From: Escherichia coli
GTDB lineage: Bacteria > Pseudomonadota > Gammaproteobacteria > Enterobacterales > Enterobacteriaceae
DNA length: 64,000 nucleotides
Assembly: GCF_003334355.1 (NCBI RefSeq)
Contig: NZ_QOWP01000008.1
Strand: one strand, 5' to 3'
Shown: positions 2,648 through 55,144 of the stretch, one piece after another
Layout: each line of letters starts with the position of its first letter
Position numbering within the stretch: position 1 is the first letter of the stretch
The notes under the pieces: generated by a model
Seen by the model: only the letters and a program-made list of their open reading frames with translations
The model's database searches: none
Told to the model about the DNA's origin: nothing
Made by a program: the position numbers and the translations under genes

Positions 2648-3522
2648 CAGCTCGCTACATCGCAATTGACTGGGGATCGACCAATCTGCGCGCCTGGCTT
2701 TATCAGGGCGACCACTGCCTGGAGAGCAGGCAATCAGAAGCAGGCGTCACGCGCCTGAACGGAAAATCTCCGGCTGCGGTGTTAGCAGAAGTCACGACCG
2801 ACTGGCGTGAAGAAAATACGCCAGTGGTGATGGCAGGAATGGTCGGCAGCAATGTCGGCTGGAAAGTTGCTCCGTATTTATCTGTTCCTGCCCGTTTTTC
2901 GTCTATTGGCGAACAATTAACGTCTGTTGGCGACAATATCTGGATTATTCCCGGATTATGCGTCTCTCATGACGATAACCACAATGTGATGCGCGGCGAA
3001 GAAACACAATTGATCGGCGCGCGAGCTCTGGCTCCTTCCTCTCTTTATGTTATGCCCGGTACGCATTGCAAATGGGTGCAGGCCGATAGCCAGCAAATCA
3101 ACGATTTTCGCACCGTGATGACCGGTGAATTACATCATTTACTGTTAAATCACTCATTGATTGGCGCAGGTTTGCCGCCGCAGGAAAACTCTGCCGATGC
3201 CTTCGCGGCTGGCCTTGAGCGCGGCCTTAATGCGCCCGCCATATTGCCGCAGCTTTTTGAAGTTCGCGCCTCGCATGTGCTGGGAACACTTCCCCGCGAA
3301 CAGGTCAGCGAATTTCTCTCTGGTTTGTTGATTGGCGCAGAGGTTGCCAGTATGCGCGACTATGTGACCCATCAACACGCCATCACCCTTGTCGCCGGAA
3401 CATCGCTGACCGCGCGCTACCAGCAAGCCTTTCAGGCGATGGGTTGCGACGTGACGGCGGTGGCGGGCGACACGGCATTTCAGGCTGGTATAAGGAGCAT
3501 CGCACATGCAGTGGCAAACTAA
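2644..3522 (+). CDS. dgoK: 2-dehydro-3-deoxygalactonokinase
   Basis: 292-aa ORF; N-terminal IAIDWGSTNLRAW kinase motif; 4-nt overlap with dgoR stop. Confidence 0.9.
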   Translation: MTARYIAIDWGSTNLRAWLYQGDHCLESRQSEAGVTRLNGKSPAAVLAEVTTDWREENTPVVMAGMVGSNVGWKVAPYLSVPARFSSIGEQLTSVGDNIWIIPGLCVSHDDNHNVMRGEETQLIGARALAPSSLYVMPGTHCKWVQADSQQINDFRTVMTGELHHLLLNHSLIGAGLPPQENSADAFAAGLERGLNAPAILPQLFEVRASHVLGTLPREQVSEFLSGLLIGAEVASMRDYVTHQHAITLVAGTSLTARYQQAFQAMGCDVTAVAGDTAFQAGIRSIAHAVAN

Positions 3523-4123
3523 ACTCCCGCTGATCGCCATTTTGCGCGGCATTAAGCCCGACGAGGCGCTGGCGCATGTTGGCGCGGTGATTGACGCCGG
3601 GTTCGACGCGGTTGAAATCCCGCTGAATTCCCCACAATGGGAGCAAAGCATTCCCGCCATCGTTGATGCGTATGGCGACAAGGCGTTGATTGGCGCAGGT
3701 ACGGTACTGAAACCTGAACAGGTCGATGCGCTCGCCAGGATGGGCTGTCAGCTCATCGTTACGCCCAATATCCATAGTGAAGTGATCCGCCGTGCGGTGG
3801 GCTACGGCATGACCGTCTGCCCCGGCTGCGCGACGGCGACCGAAGCCTTTACCGCGCTCGAAGCGGGCGCGCAGGCGCTGAAAATATTTCCGTCATCGGC
3901 TTTTGGTCCGCAATACATCAAAGCGTTAAAAGCGGTATTGCCATCGGACATCGCAGTCTTTGCCGTTGGCGGCGTGACGCCAGAAAACCTGGCGCAGTGG
4001 ATAGACGCAGGTTGTGCTGGGGCGGGCTTAGGCAGCGATCTCTATCGCGCCGGGCAGTCCGTAGAACGCACCGCGCAGCAGGCAGCAGCATTTGTTAAGG
4101 CGTATCGAGAGGCAGTGCAATGA
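3506..4123 (+). CDS. dgoA: 2-dehydro-3-deoxy-6-phosphogalactonate aldolase
   Basis: 205-aa ORF overlapping the dgoK 3' end by 17 nt; KDPG-aldolase family. Confidence 0.9.
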
Positions 4124-5268
4124 AAATCACCAAAATTACCACGTATCGTTTACCTCCCCGCTGGATGTTCCTGAAAATTGAAACCGATGAAGGCGTGGTC
4201 GGTTGGGGCGAGCCCGTGATCGAAGGCCGCGCCCGTACGGTGGAAGCGGCAGTTCACGAGCTGGGTGACTATTTGATTGGTCAGGATCCATCGCGCATCA
4301 ATGACTTATGGCAAGTGATGTATCGCGCCGGATTCTATCGCGGCGGTCCGATCCTGATGAGCGCCATCGCCGGGATTGACCAGGCGTTATGGGATATCAA
4401 AGGTAAAGTGCTGAATGCGCCGGTCTGGCAACTGATGGGCGGCCTGGTTCGCGACAAAATTAAAGCCTACAGTTGGGTTGGCGGCGATCGTCCGGCGGAT
4501 GTTATCGACGGCATTAAAACGCTACGCGAAATCGGCTTCGATACCTTCAAACTGAACGGTTGTGAAGAACTGGGGCTAATTGATAACTCCCGCGCGGTAG
4601 ATGCGGCGGTTAACACCGTGGCACAAATTCGTGAAGCTTTTGGCAATCAGATTGAGTTTGGTCTTGATTTCCACGGTCGCGTCAGCGCGCCGATGGCGAA
4701 AGTGCTGATTAAAGAACTGGAGCCGTATCGCCCGCTGTTTATTGAGGAGCCGGTGCTGGCGGAACAAGCCGAATACTACCCGAAACTGGCGGCACAAACG
4801 CATATTCCACTGGCGGCGGGTGAACGCATGTTCTCACGCTTCGATTTTAAACGCGTGCTGGAGGCAGGCGGTATTTCGATTCTGCAACCGGATCTCTCCC
4901 ACGCGGGCGGTATTACCGAATGCTACAAAATCGCCGGAATGGCAGAAGCCTATGACGTGACCCTTGCGCCGCACTGTCCGCTCGGACCGATTGCACTGGC
5001 GGCTTGCCTGCATATCGACTTTGTTTCCTATAACGCCGTACTTCAGGAACAAAGTATGGGAATTCATTACAACAAAGGCGCGGAGTTACTCGACTTTGTG
5101 AAAAACAAAGAAGACTTCAGCATGGTCGGCGGCTTCTTTAAACCGTTAACGAAACCGGGCTTAGGCGTGGAAATCGACGAAGCTAAAGTGATTGAGTTCA
5201 GTAAAAATGCCCCGGACTGGCGTAATCCGCTCTGGCGTCATGAAGATAACAGCGTAGCAGAGTGGTAA
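4120..5268 (+). CDS. dgoD: D-galactonate dehydratase (enolase superfamily)
   Basis: 382-aa ORF; 4-nt overlap with dgoA. Confidence 0.9.
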
Positions 5269-24433: not shown

Positions 24434-24558
24434 TCTGCAATTCAGTACAAAACGTGATCAACCCCTCAATTTTCCCTTGCTGAAAAATTTTCCATTGTCT
24501 CCCCTGTAAAGCTGTGCTTGTATAAATATTGTTAAACACAAAACCAACAAGGTCCCCA

Positions 24559-24762: not shown

Positions 24763-26451
24763 ATGGCAAGTTCGGGCACAACATCGACGCGTAAGCGCTT
24801 TACCGGCGCAGAATTTATCGTTCATTTCCTGGAACAGCAGGGCATTAAGATTGTGACGGGCATTCCGGGCGGTTCTATCCTGCCTGTTTACGATGCCTTA
24901 AGCCAAAGTACGCAAATCCGCCATATTCTGGCTCGCCATGAACAGGGCGCGGGATTTATCGCTCAGGGAATGGCGCGCACCGACGGTAAACCGGCGGTCT
25001 GTATGGCCTGTAGCGGACCGGGTGCGACTAACCTGGTGACCGCCATTGCCGATGCGCGGCTGGACTCCATCCCGCTGATTTGCATCACTGGTCAGGTTCC
25101 CGCCTCGATGATCGGCACCGACGCCTTCCAGGAAGTCGACACCTACGGCATCTCTATCCCCATCACCAAACACAACTATCTGGTCAGACATATCGAAGAA
25201 CTCCCGCAGGTCATGAGCGATGCCTTCCGCATTGCGCAATCAGGCCGCCCAGGCCCGGTGTGGATAGACATTCCTAAGGATGTGCAAACGGCGGTTTTTG
25301 AGATTGAAGCTCAGCCCGCGGTGGCAGAAAAAGCCGCTGCACCCGCCTTTAGCGAAGAAAGCATTCGTGACGCAGCTACAATGATTAACGCTGCCAAACG
25401 CCCGGTGCTTTATCTGGGTGGTGGTGTGATCAATGCGCCTGCGCGGGTGCGTGAACTGGCGGAGAAAGCGCAACTGCCTACCACCATGACTTTAATGGCG
25501 CTGGGCATGCTGCCAAAAGCGCATCCGTTGTCGCTGGGTATGCTGGGGATGCACGGCGTGCGCAGCACTAACTATATCTTGCAGGAGGCGGATTTACTGA
25601 TTGTGCTCGGTGCGCGTTTTGATGACCGGGCGATTGGCAAAACCGAGCAGTTCTGTCCGAATGCCAAAATCATTCATGTCGATATCGACCGTGCAGAGCT
25701 GGGTAAAATCAAGCAGCCGCATGTGGCGATTCAGGCGGATGTTGATGACGTGCTGGCGCAGTTGATCCCGCTGGTGGAAGCGCAACCGCGTGCAGAGTGG
25801 CACCAGTTGGTAGCGGATTTGCAGCGTGAGTTTCCGTGTCCAATCCCGAAAGCGTGCGATCCATTAAGCCATTACGGCCTGATCAACGCCGTTGCCGCCT
25901 GTGTCGATGACAATGCGATTATCACCACCGATGTGGGGCAGCATCAGATGTGGACCGCGCAAGCTTATCCGCTCAATCGCCCACGCCAGTGGCTGACCTC
26001 CGGTGGGCTGGGCACGATGGGTTTTGGCCTGCCTGCGGCGATTGGCGCGGCGCTGGCGAACCCGGATCGCAAAGTGTTGTGTTTCTCCGGCGACGGCAGC
26101 CTGATGATGAATATTCAGGAGATGGCGACCGCCAGTGAAAATCAGCTGGATGTCAAAATCATTCTGATGAACAACGAAGCGCTGGGGCTGGTGCATCAGC
26201 AACAGAGTCTGTTCTACGAGCAAGGCGTTTTTGCCGCCACCTATCCGGGCAAAATCAACTTTATGCAGATTGCCGCCGGATTCGGCCTCGAAACCTGTGA
26301 TTTGAATAACGAAGCCGATCCGCAGGCTGCATTGCAGGAAATCATCAATCGCCCTGGCCCGGCGCTGATCCATGTGCGCATTGATGCCGAAGAAAAAGTT
26401 TACCCGATGGTGCCGCTAGGTGCGGCGAATACTGAAATGGTGGGGGAATAA
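24763..26451 (+). CDS. ilvB: Acetolactate synthase I, large subunit (TPP-dependent)
   Basis: 562-aa ORF; TPP-binding motif GDGSLMMNIQE. Confidence 0.95.
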   Translation: MASSGTTSTRKRFTGAEFIVHFLEQQGIKIVTGIPGGSILPVYDALSQSTQIRHILARHEQGAGFIAQGMARTDGKPAVCMACSGPGATNLVTAIADARLDSIPLICITGQVPASMIGTDAFQEVDTYGISIPITKHNYLVRHIEELPQVMSDAFRIAQSGRPGPVWIDIPKDVQTAVFEIEAQPAVAEKAAAPAFSEESIRDAATMINAAKRPVLYLGGGVINAPARVRELAEKAQLPTTMTLMALGMLPKAHPLSLGMLGMHGVRSTNYILQEADLLIVLGARFDDRAIGKTEQFCPNAKIIHVDIDRAELGKIKQPHVAIQADVDDVLAQLIPLVEAQPRAEWHQLVADLQREFPCPIPKACDPLSHYGLINAVAACVDDNAIITTDVGQHQMWTAQAYPLNRPRQWLTSGGLGTMGFGLPAAIGAALANPDRKVLCFSGDGSLMMNIQEMATASENQLDVKIILMNNEALGLVHQQQSLFYEQGVFAATYPGKINFMQIAAGFGLETCDLNNEADPQAALQEIINRPGPALIHVRIDAEEKVYPMVPLGAANTEMVGE

Positions 26452-28920: not shown

Positions 28921-30240
28921 ATGTTGCCGTTTCTGAAAGCGCCTGCCGATGCGCCATTAATGACTGATAAACATGAAATTGATGCCCGTTATCGCTACTG
29001 GCGTCGGCATATTCTGCTGACCATCTGGCTGGGTTACGCGCTGTTTTACTTCACGCGTAAAAGTTTTAACGCCGCCGTACCAGAAATCCTTGCTAACGGC
29101 GTGCTCAGCCGTAGCGATATCGGCCTATTAGCGACCCTGTTTTACATTACTTACGGCGTGTCGAAGTTTGTCTCCGGCATTGTCAGCGATCGCTCAAATG
29201 CCCGTTATTTTATGGGGATAGGGCTTATCGCCACTGGCATCATCAACATTCTGTTTGGCTTCTCGACGTCGCTATGGGCGTTTGCCGTGCTCTGGGTGCT
29301 GAACGCCTTTTTCCAGGGCTGGGGTTCACCGGTGTGTGCGCGTCTGTTAACCGCCTGGTATTCTCGTACCGAGCGCGGCGGTTGGTGGGCATTATGGAAC
29401 ACGGCGCATAACGTCGGCGGCGCACTCATTCCCATTGTGATGGCAGCGGCTGCACTACATTACGGCTGGCGTGCCGGGATGATGATTGCTGGTTGTATGG
29501 CGATCGTCGTGGGAATTTTTCTCTGCTGGCGGCTGCGCGATCGCCCGCAGGCGTTAGGTTTACCGGCGGTCGGTGAATGGCGACACGACGCGCTGGAGAT
29601 AGCTCAACAACAAGAAGGGGCAGGGCTGACGCGTAAAGAGATCCTCACCAAATATGTGTTGCTGAATCCGTATATCTGGCTGCTTTCGTTTTGCTATGTG
29701 CTGGTCTATGTGGTCCGGGCGGCGATCAACGACTGGGGCAATTTGTATATGTCCGAGACGCTGGGCGTCGATCTGGTCACGGCGAATACGGCAGTGACGA
29801 TGTTTGAACTGGGTGGATTTATCGGTGCGCTGGTAGCGGGTTGGGGCTCGGACAAATTGTTTAACGGCAACCGAGGGCCGATGAATTTGATTTTCGCCGC
29901 CGGAATTTTGCTTTCAGTCGGCTCCCTGTGGCTGATGCCATTTGCCAGCTACGTGATGCAGGCAACCTGCTTCTTCACCATTGGTTTTTTTGTCTTTGGC
30001 CCGCAGATGTTAATTGGTATGGCGGCGGCAGAGTGTTCCCACAAAGAGGCGGCAGGGGCGGCGACGGGGTTTGTCGGCTTGTTTGCTTATCTGGGGGCGT
30101 CGCTTGCTGGTTGGCCGCTGGCGAAAGTGCTCGATACCTGGCACTGGAGCGGATTTTTTGTGGTTATCTCTATCGCCGCCGGGATTTCCGCACTGCTGTT
30201 ACTGCCCTTTTTGAACGCCCAGACACCGCGTGAAGCGTGA
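28921..30240 (+). CDS. uhpC: Membrane sensor/regulator UhpC (MFS, OPA family)
   Basis: ORF 28918..30240; about 439 aa; homologous to UhpT. Confidence 0.9.
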   Translation: MLPFLKAPADAPLMTDKHEIDARYRYWRRHILLTIWLGYALFYFTRKSFNAAVPEILANGVLSRSDIGLLATLFYITYGVSKFVSGIVSDRSNARYFMGIGLIATGIINILFGFSTSLWAFAVLWVLNAFFQGWGSPVCARLLTAWYSRTERGGWWALWNTAHNVGGALIPIVMAAAALHYGWRAGMMIAGCMAIVVGIFLCWRLRDRPQALGLPAVGEWRHDALEIAQQQEGAGLTRKEILTKYVLLNPYIWLLSFCYVLVYVVRAAINDWGNLYMSETLGVDLVTANTAVTMFELGGFIGALVAGWGSDKLFNGNRGPMNLIFAAGILLSVGSLWLMPFASYVMQATCFFTIGFFVFGPQMLIGMAAAECSHKEAAGAATGFVGLFAYLGASLAGWPLAKVLDTWHWSGFFVVISIAAGISALLLLPFLNAQTPREA

Positions 30241-30377
30241 TGCATCTCACCTTTTCACTTCATATCCGGCAAAACTAAGAAATTTTCCAGGTTTTTCCTG
30301 GACGCTATCTCAGGCCTGATTTGCTGCTGATTTTTACAATGCATGCCTCACGCAGGTATTCATTTCAGGAGTAACCC
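30241..30377 (+). promoter_or_regulatory. uhpT promoter region (UhpA- and CRP-dependent in K-12)
   Basis: Intergenic region between uhpC and uhpT; assignment by position and established knowledge, individual sites not resolved. Confidence 0.4.
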
Positions 30378-31813: not shown

Positions 31814-33580
31814 TTATTCCGTGACTTCCAGCGTAGTGAAGGCAAACTTCTCGCCATCAAATAGCCCCTGACTGGTTAGTTTTAGCGCGGGGATCACTGG
31901 CAGAGAAAGAAACGCCATCTGAATAAACGGCTCATCGGGTAACGGACCGCATTCACGGGCGGCGGCTTTCAAGGCGTCAATCTGTTCCGCCAGCGACTGC
32001 GCCGTGTCGGTGCTCATCAGGCCGGCAATGGGCAACGGCAGATGACTTTGGACCTGGCCGTTACGTACCACGCACAGCCCGCCGCCATCCTGAATCACCT
32101 GATTGACCGCCAGCGCCATCTCTTCGGCACTGCGACCGATCACCACAATATTATGGCTGTCATGGCTGACCGTCGCAGCCAGCGCACCTTCATTCAGTCC
32201 AAAGCCGCCAAGCAAACCACAAGCCGGAGCCAGCCGTTGCCCGTAACGCTCAAGTACGGCAATAAAGCTCACATCATCGCGATCAAAACCATTTTCGCTG
32301 TAGACGCTGGAGTGGGAGTGCGTAATCAATTCGTTATGGATGACGTCAATGACCCGATAGCGTTTTCCGGGCGTAAATTGCAGGGCAAAGTCGCTGGCGG
32401 AAACTGGCTGGCGGGCAATGGTGTTGCCATATGGCGGAGCGGATTGTGCCAGTCTCGCCGACTCTTCCGCCTGTAAGGTTTGCGCATCAATCGGCTCGCC
32501 TTTCACCAGTACCTGCTGCACCGTGACCTTACGCGCATCGCTCAACAGGACGATATCGGCCTGCTTGCCGGGTGCCAGTAAGCCGAGGTGATTCAGACCA
32601 AAGTGGCGCGCCGTCGACCAGCTGGCGACGCGATATGCCACATGCAGCGGCACATTGTGTTGTTCGATCAGGCGGCGAATTAAGGCATCGATGTGTCCTT
32701 CATGGGCGATCTCCCACGGGTTACGGTCATCGGTACAGAGCATGCATTGCGGGCTGTTAAATTCGTTGATCAACGGTGCCAGCGCGTTGAGATTGCGGGC
32801 AGCGGACCCTTCGCGGATCATCAACGACATGCCGAGTTGTAATTTCCGGCGTCCTTCTTCCAGCTGATAACTTTCGTGGCAGTTTTCAATACCCGCAGTA
32901 ATATAGGCGTTAAGTTCTTTACCACCCAAACCCGGGCAGTGACCGTCCAGCGTCAGGTGGCGAAATGCATCCAGTTTATCGAGCAGCGCATTCTGCCCGC
33001 TAATTACGCCAGGGTAGTCCATCATTTCTGCAAGGCCGGTAACCTGCGGATGGTCCCGCCAGGCGAGCATCTGTTCAAGGGTAAAACTGGCACCGTTAAC
33101 ATCGCAGCCTTCCAGGGCGGGTACGCAAGAGCTGACCTGTAAGTACTGGTTTTGCCTTGCCTGTTCGGCACAGCGGGCAAACCAGGCGAATCCGGCTTCT
33201 CCCATCACGTTGACGATTTCATGAGGGTCGCAAATAACGGTCGTCAGGCCGCGCGGCAGGGTAGCGGTTTCAAAAGTGACCGGCGTCATCATGCTGGATT
33301 CAATATGCAGGTGAGCATCAATAAACCCTGGCACCGCCGTTGCGCCGCGAGCATCAATCCGCTGCAAAGCCGGAGCATCAGCGTATTCTGCGCCAACACC
33401 GGCAATGTAACGTCCTTTAATCACAATTGGGCCGGAAATTTCTCCGCCATTGATCAGGTCGAGAATAGAGACATTATCAATAATATAATCGGCAACAGCG
33501 TCGCCACGGGAAACGGCTAACAATTCCTGGTATTCAGCCCGGCTAATGTGATGAAATTTATGGTTAATAGAATTATTCAT
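31814..33580 (-). CDS. ade: Adenine deaminase (amidohydrolase superfamily)
   Basis: 588-aa ORF; metal-binding motif [12 protein letters not shown]. Confidence 0.9.
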
Positions 33581-33672
33581 ATTTTTCTCATTTTGATTTT
33601 ATCAATTTGATTATTATTTATCATAAAGAAACGTCGCGAGATTATTAAAGAATATCCATTAATGTGCAATTG

Positions 33673-33693
33673 AAATGTGATAATTATCACTGA
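33673..33693. promoter_or_regulatory. Candidate CRP-binding site in the ade/adeQ divergent intergenic region
   Basis: aaaTGTGAtaattaTCACtga fits TGTGA-N6-TCACA with one mismatch. Confidence 0.45.
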
Positions 33694-33754
33694 ACCGTTG
33701 TTGTCATTTGTTTTACAAAAGCAAGGGATTAAATCTCCTCCAATGGACAAAAAA

Positions 33755-35089
33755 ATGAATAATGACAATACCGATTACGTGAGTAATGAATCAGGGACGC
33801 TTTCGCGATTATTTAAACTACCTCAGCATGGGACCACCGTCCGCACAGAATTGATTGCGGGGATGACCACTTTTTTAACCATGGTGTACATCGTTTTTGT
33901 GAACCCGCAAATCCTCGGCGCGGCACAAATGGACCCGAAAGTGGTGTTTGTTACCACCTGTTTGATTGCCGGTATCGGCAGTATTGCGATGGGGATATTT
34001 GCTAACTTACCCGTGGCGCTGGCTCCGGCAATGGGGCTGAACGCCTTCTTTGCCTTCGTGGTCGTGGGGGCGATGGGCATCTCCTGGCAGACCGGGATGG
34101 GCGCAATATTCTGGGGCGCAGTTGGACTATTTTTGCTCACGCTGTTTCGTATCCGGTACTGGATGATCTCCAACATTCCCTTAAGTTTACGTATTGGTAT
34201 CACCAGCGGAATTGGATTATTTATCGCCTTAATGGGATTAAAAAATACTGGCGTTATTGTCGCCAATAAAGACACGCTGGTGATGATTGGCGATTTAAGT
34301 TCTCACGGCGTGTTGTTAGGTATTTTAGGGTTTTTTATTATAACCGTGTTGTCATCACGTCATTTTCATGCCGCGGTGCTGGTTTCTATTGTGGTGATGT
34401 CTTGCTGTGGATTATTTTTCGGTGATGTTCATTTTAGCGGCGTCTATTCCATCCCGCCTGATATTAGCGGCGTCATTGGTGAAGTAGATTTGAGCGGCGC
34501 GTTAACACTTGAACTCGCCGGTATCATTTTCTCCTTTATGCTGATCAACCTATTTGATTCATCAGGAACATTAATTGGTGTAACTGATAAAGCGGGCTTA
34601 ATAGATGGTAACGGTAAATTCCCCAATATGAATAAGGCGCTGTATGTTGATAGCGTCAGTTCGGTGGCGGGTGCGTTTATCGGTACCTCGTCTGTTACTG
34701 CCTATATTGAAAGTACTTCTGGTGTGGCAGTCGGTGGCCGCACGGGGCTGACTGCGGTTGTGGTTGGCGTTATGTTCCTGTTGGTTATGTTCTTCTCACC
34801 GCTGGTGGCGATAGTTCCTCCTTACGCAACCGCCGGAGCGTTAATCTTTGTTGGCGTGCTGATGACTTCGAGCCTGGCGCGCGTTAACTGGGATGATTTT
34901 ACCGAATCGGTGCCTGCGTTTATTACCACGGTGATGATGCCCTTTACTTTCTCGATCACCGAAGGGATTGCACTCGGCTTTATGTCGTACTGCATCATGA
35001 AAGTATGCACCGGGCGCTGGCGCGATCTGAACCTGTGTGTGGTGGTGGTCGCAGCTCTGTTTGCACTGAAGATTATTCTGGTGGATTAG
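33755..35089 (+). CDS. adeQ: Adenine permease (NCS2/AzgA family)
   Basis: ORF 33677..35089 (GTG in track); start at MNNDNTDYVSN gives 444 aa. Confidence 0.85.
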   Translation: MNNDNTDYVSNESGTLSRLFKLPQHGTTVRTELIAGMTTFLTMVYIVFVNPQILGAAQMDPKVVFVTTCLIAGIGSIAMGIFANLPVALAPAMGLNAFFAFVVVGAMGISWQTGMGAIFWGAVGLFLLTLFRIRYWMISNIPLSLRIGITSGIGLFIALMGLKNTGVIVANKDTLVMIGDLSSHGVLLGILGFFIITVLSSRHFHAAVLVSIVVMSCCGLFFGDVHFSGVYSIPPDISGVIGEVDLSGALTLELAGIIFSFMLINLFDSSGTLIGVTDKAGLIDGNGKFPNMNKALYVDSVSSVAGAFIGTSSVTAYIESTSGVAVGGRTGLTAVVVGVMFLLVMFFSPLVAIVPPYATAGALIFVGVLMTSSLARVNWDDFTESVPAFITTVMMPFTFSITEGIALGFMSYCIMKVCTGRWRDLNLCVVVVAALFALKIILVD

Positions 35090-39406: not shown

Positions 39407-40591
39407 CTAAATATCTTTAATAAACAGCAGGCAAATTATCGCAATACCCAACATCCCTATCGCCAGCCAGAACAACGCATGGTAGCTCCAGATTTCAACC
39501 ATAATTCCGTCAACAGAGCCGGCGATAATCCAGCCGACGCGTGAAGTATTTGCATATAACGTTGTCGCAGAGCCTATTTTTTCAGGCATCAGGTCCTGAA
39601 ATTAAAGCATGCCGATACCACAGAGAATACCAAGGAAGATGGCATTAAGAATTTGCAATTCCAGCTCAACCGCCGGAGTCGTCGCCATGAGTACGCTGGC
39701 GTAAAAACACATTCCACTCACGATAGCAATGAGCATTAATAGTCGCTTGCCAATACGTTTCATGTAATAGCCTGCGATTAACATCATCGGAATTTCCAGA
39801 CCGGCAGCGATACCAATCATTTCTCCAGCCAGTTTATCGGTTAGATGCAGTTCATCAATAATAAATAGCGGCATATTTATCATGTAGAGATTATTCGCCG
39901 CCCACATCATTGAACAGACCACAAAAAGTAGCCGCGTATCCCGCTTCCTGTGGGTGGAGGGTAAAATTTCTACGGGTTGGGTAACGACAGGAATATTTCT
40001 TTGTATTGATGGCAAAAACAACCAGACTATCAGCCCGCAAACAACAAATGCGATGGCAGCGGTGAGATACATCACTTTAAAACTAAATCCCATTGCCAGT
40101 TCATAAGCGAGCGGTGGCCCGATAACCCAGGCAAGCGAGATCTGAGCACGTAAAAATGTACTGAACATGACCGTCTCACGGCCTGTTCTGTCGGCGTGTT
40201 CACGGGCGAGGGCGAACATTTGCGGGTTTGCGGTGGAAGCAAAACTACTCAGAAGTACGCCCGTTGAGAGGAGAATGAAGTAGTTGCGATTCCACGCAAA
40301 AAGCGTGCAGGCCAGCACTCCAAATAAGCAACATAGCAGAATCAGTAATTTACGGTCGCCTTGTTTATCGGAGTGCCTTGCCAGAAATTGACTGACCAGA
40401 ATTCCCATAATAGCGCTACCGGTGAAGAAAAAACCTACCATTATAGGACGGGCTTTCAGTTCATCTGCGAGGAATATACTTAGGGTAGGAGTCTGAAGAG
40501 CGCCCGCAATACCCGTCAGAAAGGCGACAAGTAAAAATGCCGCGGCAGTGAGATCAAGTATTTTTGATGGAGTGGTAGCCGTTTTTTGCAT
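39407..40591 (-). pseudogene. setC: MFS sugar efflux transporter SetC with an in-frame TAA at 39602-39604 (fragments of 329 aa and 60+ aa)
   Basis: ORFs 39602..40591 and 39407..39589 are in the same frame, separated only by a TAA and 4 sense codons; 329+1+4+60 = 394 codons, the length recalled for intact SetC. Confidence 0.7.
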
Positions 40592-53035: not shown

Positions 53036-55144
53036 TTAATTTCGGTTTCGGGTGACTTTAATCACGTCTGGCATCACGCGGATTTTGCGCATGATATTCG
53101 CCAGATGCACACGGTCACGAGCGGTCAGACGAATAAAGGCGCTGTAGACGCGACCATCTTTCTCTTCCGTATTCAAACTTTGAATATTCGAAGTCGTGGT
53201 GTTAATTGCCGCCGTCAGGTTTGCCAGCGCACCCTGATGATTGAACATCTCCACCTTGATTTCGGTGATGAACTCCTGCGCCGTCTCTTTATCCCATTCC
53301 ACAGCCATAAACTTCTCTGGCTCTTTCTGGTAGCCACGGATATTACGGCAGGATTCATGGTGGATCACCAGACCTTTACCGGGGCTGACGTGGGCGATAA
53401 TCGGGTCGCCAGGAATAGGGCGGCAGCATTTCGCAAAGGTGATCAGCACGCCATCGGCACCTTTAATGGGCAGATGTCCGTGGCTTTGGGTTGCCGGTGG
53501 AATGGAGGCGTCCCCATGTTGCAGATTTTTCGCGACCACCACGCTCATTGCGTTACCAAGTCCGATTTCTGCCAGCAGATCGTCAAGCGTTGCCAGCTTC
53601 ATGCGATCCAGCTCGCGCTGAATATTTTCCTGCGGGATTTCATTCAGCTTACGGCTACCACCCAAAGCATGGTTGAGCAGACGACGGCCCAGGCTTACAG
53701 AATCATCACGCTTGAGGTTTTTCAGCAACTGACGAATTTTGGCGCGCGCTTTCGAGCTAACGACAAAGTTCAGCCAAGCGGCATTCGGGCGAGCGCCCGG
53801 AGCGGTAATGATTTCAACGGTTTGACCGCTGGTAAGCGGCTGCGACAGCGGGTAAGGCTGGCGGTCAACGCGTGCGCCCACGCAGGCATGACCGATATCG
53901 GTATGCACTGCATAAGCGAAGTCGACGGGCGTTGCACCGGCAGGCAGCTCGACAATGCGCCCTTCCGGTGTGAAAACGTAAATCTCATCCGGGAAGAGAT
54001 CGGATTTAACGCTCTCGATAAATTCAAACGAACTACCGGCGCTCTGTTGCAGCTCCAGCAGGCTTTGCATCCAGCGCTGGGCGCGGATTTGTGCGGTAGT
54101 ACTGGTTTCGCCGTGCTCTTTATAAGCCCAGTGCGCGGCAACACCCATCTCCGCCATCTGATCCATATCTTCGGTACGGATCTGGACCTCAACCGGCACG
54201 CCGTGCGGGCCAATCATCGAGGTGTGCAACGACTGATAGCCGTTCGCTTTTGGAATGGCGATATAGTCTTTCACGCGGCCCGGACGCGGCTTGTACAGGC
54301 TGTGCATCTGGCCCAGCACGCGATAACAGGTGTCAGAATCATTGACGATCACGCGGAAAGCGTAGATGTCCATGATTGAGTGAAAACGCTGCTCTTTGAG
54401 CACCATTTTGCAGTAAATCGAATAAAGATGCTTTTCGCGACCACTGACGCGGCACGGTATTCCCGCTTCCTGCAAACGCCCTTCGATTTCAGAGAGGATT
54501 TTTTGGATCATCTCTTTACGGTTGCCGCGCGCGGCTTTCACCACTTCTTTAATTACGCGGTAACGATTGGGATACAGCGCCTCAAAACCCAGCTCTTCGA
54601 GTTCGGTTTTAATGTGGTGGATACCTAAACGGTGCGCCAGCGGGCTATAAATTTCGAGAGTTTCACGGGCGATGCGGCGACGTTTGTCCGGGCGAAGTGA
54701 GCCCAGCGTGCGCATGTTGTGGGTACGGTCGGCAAGTTTGATGAGGATGACGCGGATATCCTGCACCATCGCCATAATCATCTTGCGAAAGTTTTCGGCC
54801 TGCGCCTCTTTCTTATCGCGGAACTTGAGTTTATCAAGTTTCGACACCCCCTCTACCAGCTCGGCGACGCTTTTACCAAAAAGCTGTTCCATATCCTGGT
54901 AGGTGGCGGGAGTATCTTCAATCACGTCATGCAGCAGCGCCGCCATCAGCGTTTCATAGTCGAGTTTCATCTCGGCCAGAATGCAGGCAACCGCTACCGG
55001 GTGCGTGATATAGGGTTCACCGCTTGAACGTGTTTGCCCCTCGTGAGCATCACGTGCAACGAGATACGCCTGCCGCAGACGCTTGATTTGGTCTTCCGGC
55101 AGGTAGGTTTGAATCAGTTGATTCAGGCTTTCAAACAGATACAA
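53036..55144 (-). CDS. spoT: Bifunctional (p)ppGpp synthetase/hydrolase SpoT
   Basis: 702-aa ORF initiating at TTG; HD hydrolase and RelA/SpoT synthetase domains. Confidence 0.95.
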   Translation of the reverse strand: MYLFESLNQLIQTYLPEDQIKRLRQAYLVARDAHEGQTRSSGEPYITHPVAVACILAEMKLDYETLMAALLHDVIEDTPATYQDMEQLFGKSVAELVEGVSKLDKLKFRDKKEAQAENFRKMIMAMVQDIRVILIKLADRTHNMRTLGSLRPDKRRRIARETLEIYSPLAHRLGIHHIKTELEELGFEALYPNRYRVIKEVVKAARGNRKEMIQKILSEIEGRLQEAGIPCRVSGREKHLYSIYCKMVLKEQRFHSIMDIYAFRVIVNDSDTCYRVLGQMHSLYKPRPGRVKDYIAIPKANGYQSLHTSMIGPHGVPVEVQIRTEDMDQMAEMGVAAHWAYKEHGETSTTAQIRAQRWMQSLLELQQSAGSSFEFIESVKSDLFPDEIYVFTPEGRIVELPAGATPVDFAYAVHTDIGHACVGARVDRQPYPLSQPLTSGQTVEIITAPGARPNAAWLNFVVSSKARAKIRQLLKNLKRDDSVSLGRRLLNHALGGSRKLNEIPQENIQRELDRMKLATLDDLLAEIGLGNAMSVVVAKNLQHGDASIPPATQSHGHLPIKGADGVLITFAKCCRPIPGDPIIAHVSPGKGLVIHHESCRNIRGYQKEPEKFMAVEWDKETAQEFITEIKVEMFNHQGALANLTAAINTTTSNIQSLNTEEKDGRVYSAFIRLTARDRVHLANIMRKIRVMPDVIKVTRNRN

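Follow-up and report, generated by a model that had tools for sequence, protein, structure and literature searches.

A conserved cAMP-CRP site in the divergent control region of the adenine deaminase and adenine permease genes of Escherichia coli

The control region between the divergent Escherichia coli genes adeD, for adenine deaminase, and adeQ, for an adenine permease, contains a real, conserved and single binding site for cAMP-CRP. We analyzed this site in a stretch of 64,000 nucleotides of E. coli DNA, referred to here as the window. The site is already known as a CRP binding site from work of 2011, and Crp activation of adeD and adeQ is known from work of 2021. Since both EMSA data and expression data from a crp mutant background have been published for these two genes, the finding is not new. 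The present analysis adds a footprint of the site across genera, the rank of its score within the window and a check of the start codon of adeQ.

Results

Of 5426 complete E. coli genomes, 5411 match the 501 bases around the site, and there the two genes are annotated as adeD, adenine deaminase, and adeQ, adenine permease AdeQ. Locally, the gene order is uhpC, uhpT, adeD (minus strand), adeQ (plus strand), yicN and nepI. The first-pass annotation had placed the site in an AT-rich region between adeD and adeQ, and this placement holds: the spacer measures 174 bp and has 27% G+C, with base fractions of 0.36 for A, 0.13 for C, 0.14 for G and 0.37 for T. Most E. coli genomes, among them that of the K-12 derivative NEB Turbo, share it at 100% identity, and an exact 30-mer around the CRP site is present in 5355 of the 5426 complete genomes. 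An RNA element in the spacer was ruled out by an Rfam search, which gave no match at E <= 1. E. coli E2863 (NZ_AP018802.1, locus 2699-4181) has the same 501 bp around the spacer as the window, but its adeD is annotated as a pseudogene with a frameshift. The coordinates of all features are given in Table 1.

Table 1. Genes, CRP site and candidate promoter elements at the adeD-adeQ locus, in window coordinates
Feature	Position	Strand	Basis and remarks
adeD (ade, yicP), adenine deaminase, 588 aa, intact in the window	31814..33580	-	ORF and RefSeq
Divergent adeD-adeQ control region, 174 bp, 27% G+C	33581..33754	.	Composition; H-NS silencing reported in passages of PMC2753651 and PMC13274399
Alternative adeD extended -10, TGaTAAAAT	33596..33604	-	Putative; in the invariant adeD-proximal block; would place CRP at about -94.5
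Candidate adeD -10 hexamer, TATGAT	33620..33625	-	Putative; would place CRP at about -70.5
Candidate adeD -10, AATAAT	33646-33641	-	Putative; in a poorly conserved stretch; would place CRP at -49.5
Full 22-bp CRP footprint, AAATGTGATAATTATCACTGAA	33673..33694	.	Matches the classical 22-mer AAATGTGATCTAGATCACATTT at 14 of 22 positions; flanks AATG and TGAA largely conserved
cAMP-CRP binding site, 16-bp core TGTGATAATTATCACT, centre 33683.5	33676..33691	.	Weight-matrix score; conservation; Shimada 2011 Table S3
Candidate adeQ -10 hexamer, TACAAA	33714..33719	+	Putative, from spacing; would place CRP at about -41.5/-42.5 (class II)
adeQ (yicO), adenine permease, 444 aa, start ATG 33755	33755..35089	+	RefSeq; upstream extension not conserved

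The sequence aaaTGTGAtaattaTCACtga at 33673-33693 had been proposed as a near-consensus CRP site with one mismatch to TGTGA-N6-TCACA. We found it at that position, and nine of the ten core positions agree with the consensus. Within the core, GTGATAATTATCAC forms a perfect 14-bp palindrome. Taken by itself, the consensus pattern carries little weight. With at most one mismatch, TGTGA-N6-TCACA occurs once in the 64-kb window, as against 1.83 occurrences expected, and 83 of 100 shuffles contained at least one such match; the count is not significant and does not exceed chance. Because counting the bare consensus is uninformative, we built a weight matrix for CRP. The matrix was symmetrised and was derived from 45 16-mers of RegulonDB-listed CRP targets in Table S3 of Shimada et al. 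(2011), with the site under study left out.

Scoring with a CRP weight matrix had been suggested as a check on the initial proposal. With our matrix, the site scores 15.53 bits and ranks first among the approximately 64,000 positions of the window. The exact tail probability of this score is 2.0e-6 per position, corresponding to 0.13 expected occurrences per 64 kb, and at the base composition of the spacer itself 4e-4 occurrences are expected within its 174 bp. In 4.6 Mb, chance alone would yield about 9 positions with at least 15.5 bits under the same matrix. The score is thus significant, and 73% of the known sites used to train the matrix score below the adeD/adeQ site. The second-best score in the spacer is 4.4 bits, so that there is only one CRP-like site between the two genes.

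Two CRP sites known elsewhere in the window score lower than the adeD/adeQ site: the uhpT site CGTGATGCATCTCACC, at 30236-30251 at the end of uhpC, reaches 12.03 bits, and the ivbL site CGTGATCAACCCCTCA, at 24453-24468, reaches 8.65 bits. Both 16-mers are RegulonDB-known CRP targets in Table S3 of Shimada et al. (2011), and both belong to the training set of the matrix. Apart from these, just three further matches exceed 12 bits, with scores of 12.4-13.5 bits, namely GGTGACTTTAATCACG at 53051-53066, GGTGAGATACATCACT at 40061-40076 and TGTGATTTGAATAACG at 26296-26311. They appear to lie inside the coding regions of trmH, setC and ilvB, respectively, as judged by mapping onto a related locus under the assumption of collinearity.

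For a comparison across genera we scanned for adenine deaminase proteins, taking one genome per species, and obtained 15 enterobacterial loci. The adeQ gene is divergent from adeD in Escherichia spp., four Citrobacter, one Cedecea and two Kluyvera. At these loci the best match to the CRP matrix scores 15.5-17.1 bits, or less in the type strain of E. albertii, and is found 103.5-104.5 bp away from the start codon of adeD. When the E. coli spacer was aligned with seven non-Escherichia sequences from Citrobacter, Cedecea and Kluyvera, all 12 columns of the half-sites TGTGAT and ATCACT were invariant. None of the four centre columns was, the variants being AATT, AACT, TGCA and TGTA. Among the background columns of the spacer (33631-33741), 22 of 95 (23%) were invariant, and the longest invariant run was 4. 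The only departure from the consensus, TCACt, is itself invariant across the aligned genera. This pattern indicates that the half-sites are under purifying selection and that the centre of the 6-bp spacer is not, and the combination of invariant half-sites with a variable centre fits a dimer that reads two half-sites.

The half-site TGTGAT is kept in all Escherichia, Citrobacter, Cedecea and Kluyvera sequences other than that of the E. albertii type strain NBRC 107761 (locus 2890-2905). In this one genome a G-to-T change gives TGTTAT and lowers the score from 15.5 to 9.7 bits; the site is therefore not universally maintained. In Morganella, the adeD and adeQ pair is present and the matrix scan found no such CRP site upstream. 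Serratia sp. DD3 has an adenine deaminase gene without an adjacent adeQ. Just 5' of the CRP site (33668-33675), Citrobacter and Kluyvera have TTGCAATG where E. coli has TTGAAATG. The TTGCAA at this place in Citrobacter and Kluyvera resembles a CytR half-site, and it is accompanied neither by a second CRP site nor by a CytR octamer.

In the mechanically derived ORF, adeQ begins at GTG 33677, and this GTG had been noted to overlap the site; it falls inside the TGTGA half-site. The downstream ATG 33755, favoured as the real start in the first-pass annotation, is the start given in RefSeq, and both this ATG and a GGA 7-9 nt upstream of it are conserved across genera. Upstream of the ATG, the frame stays open for 4 codons in Citrobacter R56 and the two Kluyvera and for 12 codons in Cedecea before it meets an in-frame stop, and indels of 1-2 nt occur between the CRP site and the adeQ ATG across genera. 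That the E. coli frame extends to GTG 33677 is therefore accidental. We also considered the in-frame ATG 33743 as an alternative start and rejected it: the conserved AATGGA at this place is out of frame in Citrobacter and is therefore more likely a ribosome-binding site.

In class II CRP promoters the site is centred near -41.5 and overlaps the -35 region. At adeQ, the centre of the CRP site lies 71.5 bp from the ATG and 30.5 bp from the hexamer TACAAA in the adeQ direction. The latter is part of a TTTTA(C/A)AAA block whose sequence and distance from the CRP site are both conserved. A promoter scan found no -35-like hexamer downstream of the CRP site towards adeQ; it returned 4 matches as compared with 1.9 expected, consensus-like hexamers being common in AT-rich DNA. 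With TACAAA as the -10 hexamer, adeQ would have the geometry of a class II promoter, with CRP at about -41.5/-42.5.

In class I promoters, CRP is centred near -61.5, -71.5, -82.5 or -92.5. The distance between the adeD ATG and the centre of the site is 103.5 bp, and the predicted position of the site relative to the adeD promoter varies with the candidate -10 that is used. TATGAT and the extended -10 would each place CRP at an upstream, class I-like position, at about -70.5 and -94.5, respectively. The third candidate, AATAAT, would place it at a distance that is not a known activating position for CRP.

Directly upstream of the adeD ATG lies a block of 50 bp (33581-33630) with approximately 90% identity among Escherichia, Citrobacter, Cedecea and Kluyvera, part of which Morganella also retains. 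Conservation is far lower in the rest of the spacer, and the block has no Rfam match. It holds the near-palindrome TTGATTTTATCAA (33593-33605), which reads TTGAT-N3-ATCAA, a spacing that is not that of FNR, and which on the adeD strand reads TGaTAAAAT, like an extended -10. The block may be the core promoter of adeD, a 5' UTR or an operator for another regulator.

Discussion

The identity of the site as a CRP site, proposed from the sequence at the outset, is now upheld by the top matrix score in the window, by a footprint in four genera and by the occurrence of the same 16-mer in a published list. Shimada, Fujita, Yamamoto and Ishihama (2011; PLoS One 6:e20081, Table S3) give AGTGATAATTATCACA as a genomic-SELEX target of cAMP-CRP in the yicO<>ade spacer at 3.84188 Mb, and this sequence corresponds to 33676-33691 read as the reverse complement. 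As the yicO<>ade row of that table has no RegulonDB entry, the target was new at the time. A later study (PMC8085971; Microb Biotechnol 2021) set RNA-seq data from seven carbon sources against those of a crp deletion strain and examined 52 genes by EMSA. Its Table 1 gives "Crp activation" for both adeD and adeQ, which are among 20 promoters (13 polycistrons and 7 monocistrons) that were affected by the crp deletion in RNA-seq and were bound by Crp in EMSA. Catabolite control of this gene pair, which the first-pass annotation had been unable to confirm, is therefore a matter of record. The target named in 2011 and the promoters described in 2021 involve the same site, with no difference in sequence. 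Because TGTGATAATTATCACT is the sole strong site in the spacer, it would be the cause of the EMSA shift reported in PMC8085971. Neither adeQ nor ade is among the 699 promoters of the list in the CRP ChIP-exo supplement of Latif (2018), to the extent that this supplement was available; the CRPBSFinder paper does not mention the locus; and a search of main texts for yicO together with cAMP receptor protein gave no match, the site being found only in a supplementary table.

According to Petersen et al. (2002), as cited in passages of PMC2753651 and PMC13274399, adeD is a cryptic gene that H-NS silences and IS elements activate. Taking these reports together with our results, we consider it very probable that a CRP dimer at the single site activates adeD and adeQ at high cAMP, on top of silencing by H-NS. 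In this model, a single cAMP-CRP dimer would bind the palindrome midway in the divergent control region (centre 33683.5) and, at the high cAMP levels of cells that are limited for carbon or growing on a poor carbon source, would activate transcription to either side. At adeQ, CRP bound at about -41.5 would replace the -35 contact in a class II manner, and at adeD it would act from upstream in a class I-like manner, from about -70.5 or -94.5. The near-cryptic state of adeD in laboratory strains would be explained by H-NS silencing of the whole AT-rich region, and activation by CRP would therefore be superimposed on silencing. H-NS might occlude the CRP site in wild-type cells, and CRP may in turn partly counteract silencing by H-NS.

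A stronger version of this model is possible, and we put it forward tentatively, as one that we would not favour at present. It holds that one CRP dimer activates both promoters, adeQ as a class II promoter and adeD from upstream, and is in addition an anti-silencer that counters H-NS; the "cryptic" adeD would then be a catabolite-controlled gene that is expressed in nature under carbon limitation. If CRP were such an anti-silencer, the conserved TCACt mismatch and the weakened site of E. albertii would tune the balance between CRP and H-NS.

Among the alternatives, the one that survives best is that CRP binds the site but controls adeQ alone, from -41.5, the effect on adeD being indirect or a read-out of a change in local DNA structure. 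The class II geometry fits adeQ well and the geometry at adeD is ambiguous between -70.5 and -94.5; moreover, Shimada et al. (2011) initially assume that just one of two divergent promoters is controlled. In PMC8085971, however, both genes are Crp-activated and EMSA-positive, which argues against control of adeQ alone, although a single fragment of the spacer would serve as the probe for both. On balance, we regard this alternative as unlikely.

We consider it far less probable still that another regulator with a similar palindromic target, such as FNR, Fur or PlaR (YiaJ), is the main user of the site. The palindrome GTGATAATTATCAC does match the FNR core TTGAT-N4-ATCAA at eight of ten positions, and it contains GATAAT/ATTATC, the Fur recognition sequence consisting of GATAAT repeats. 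In addition, PlaR gSELEX gave AdeQ and adeD among 28 possible targets, with a peak in the spacer. Against FNR, both discriminating positions are G, as in the CRP-type GTGA, and not T, and they are invariant in all genera: the site reads GTGAT-N4-ATCAC, and the spacer contains no TTGAT-N4-ATCAA. The 19-bp Fur box GATAATGATAATCATTATC is matched at best at 11 of 19 positions, and 110 positions in the window reach at least 12. Despite the reported gSELEX peak, the PlaR box ATnTGAAACnnnGTTCAnTT has no match in the spacer with up to three mismatches. That the site is a chance palindrome in an AT-rich, H-NS-bound spacer without a regulatory role of its own is hardly credible and effectively refuted: the bare one-mismatch pattern is expected 1.83 times per window, the spacer has 27% G+C, and adeD is described as cryptic and H-NS-silenced in the sources cited above, but the weight-matrix probability is 2e-6 per position and 4e-4 for the spacer when its own base composition is used, the half-sites are invariant at 12 of 12 columns across four genera as against 23% of background columns while the centre varies, and published SELEX, EMSA and crp-deletion expression results all agree on CRP.

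Activation of both divergent genes by CRP has parallels in other systems. CRP sites shared by divergent pairs of promoters are found at malE/malK, araBAD/araC and glpT/glpA, and the adeD/adeQ locus resembles these pairs in having a short spacer and reported activation in both directions; it differs from them in having just one CRP site. We know of no specific co-activator for the adeD/adeQ locus. Several divergent spacers with CRP sites are included in Table S3 of Shimada et al. (2011).

The genes of the CytR/CRP nucleoside regulon (deo, cdd, udp, tsx, nupC and nupG) share with adeD/adeQ the activation by cAMP-CRP of functions that scavenge nucleosides or bases. Unlike in that regulon, the adeD-adeQ spacer has no tandem CRP sites and no CytR-like motif. 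We examined whether the spacer could be a CytR-CRP nucleoprotein promoter, which combines tandem CRP sites with a CytR operator, and rejected this possibility on the second-best CRP score of 4.4 bits and the lack of a CytR octamer. Motif searches of the spacer for CytR and PurR found neither. The site ties the salvage of purine bases, through uptake and deamination of adenine, to the cAMP-CRP response to carbon limitation, beside nucleoside transporters and catabolic genes that are controlled by CRP. Its practical value is that it helps to fix the start codon of adeQ at ATG 33755, and otherwise lies mostly in a tidier annotation.

Of some interest is the coexistence of CRP activation with H-NS silencing of a cryptic gene, as is also the case at bgl. 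The bgl operon of E. coli is cryptic, silenced by H-NS and activated by insertion of IS1 or IS5, and it has a CRP-dependent promoter (in part according to passages of PMC2753651). The adeD/adeQ locus is like bgl in its AT-rich control region, H-NS silencing, activation by IS elements and CRP site. Unlike bgl, adeD/adeQ is a divergent purine-salvage pair and not a sugar operon, and it has no antiterminator. E. coli A30, a horse isolate (NZ_CP092500.1, locus 3501-4604), carries an IS5-family element 51 bp upstream of the start codon of adeD. This strain lacks the remaining spacer sequence, with the CRP site in it, as well as the 5' end of adeQ, which is annotated as partial. Its insertion is the counterpart in nature of those IS insertions that have been reported, in the laboratory, to activate the cryptic adeD.
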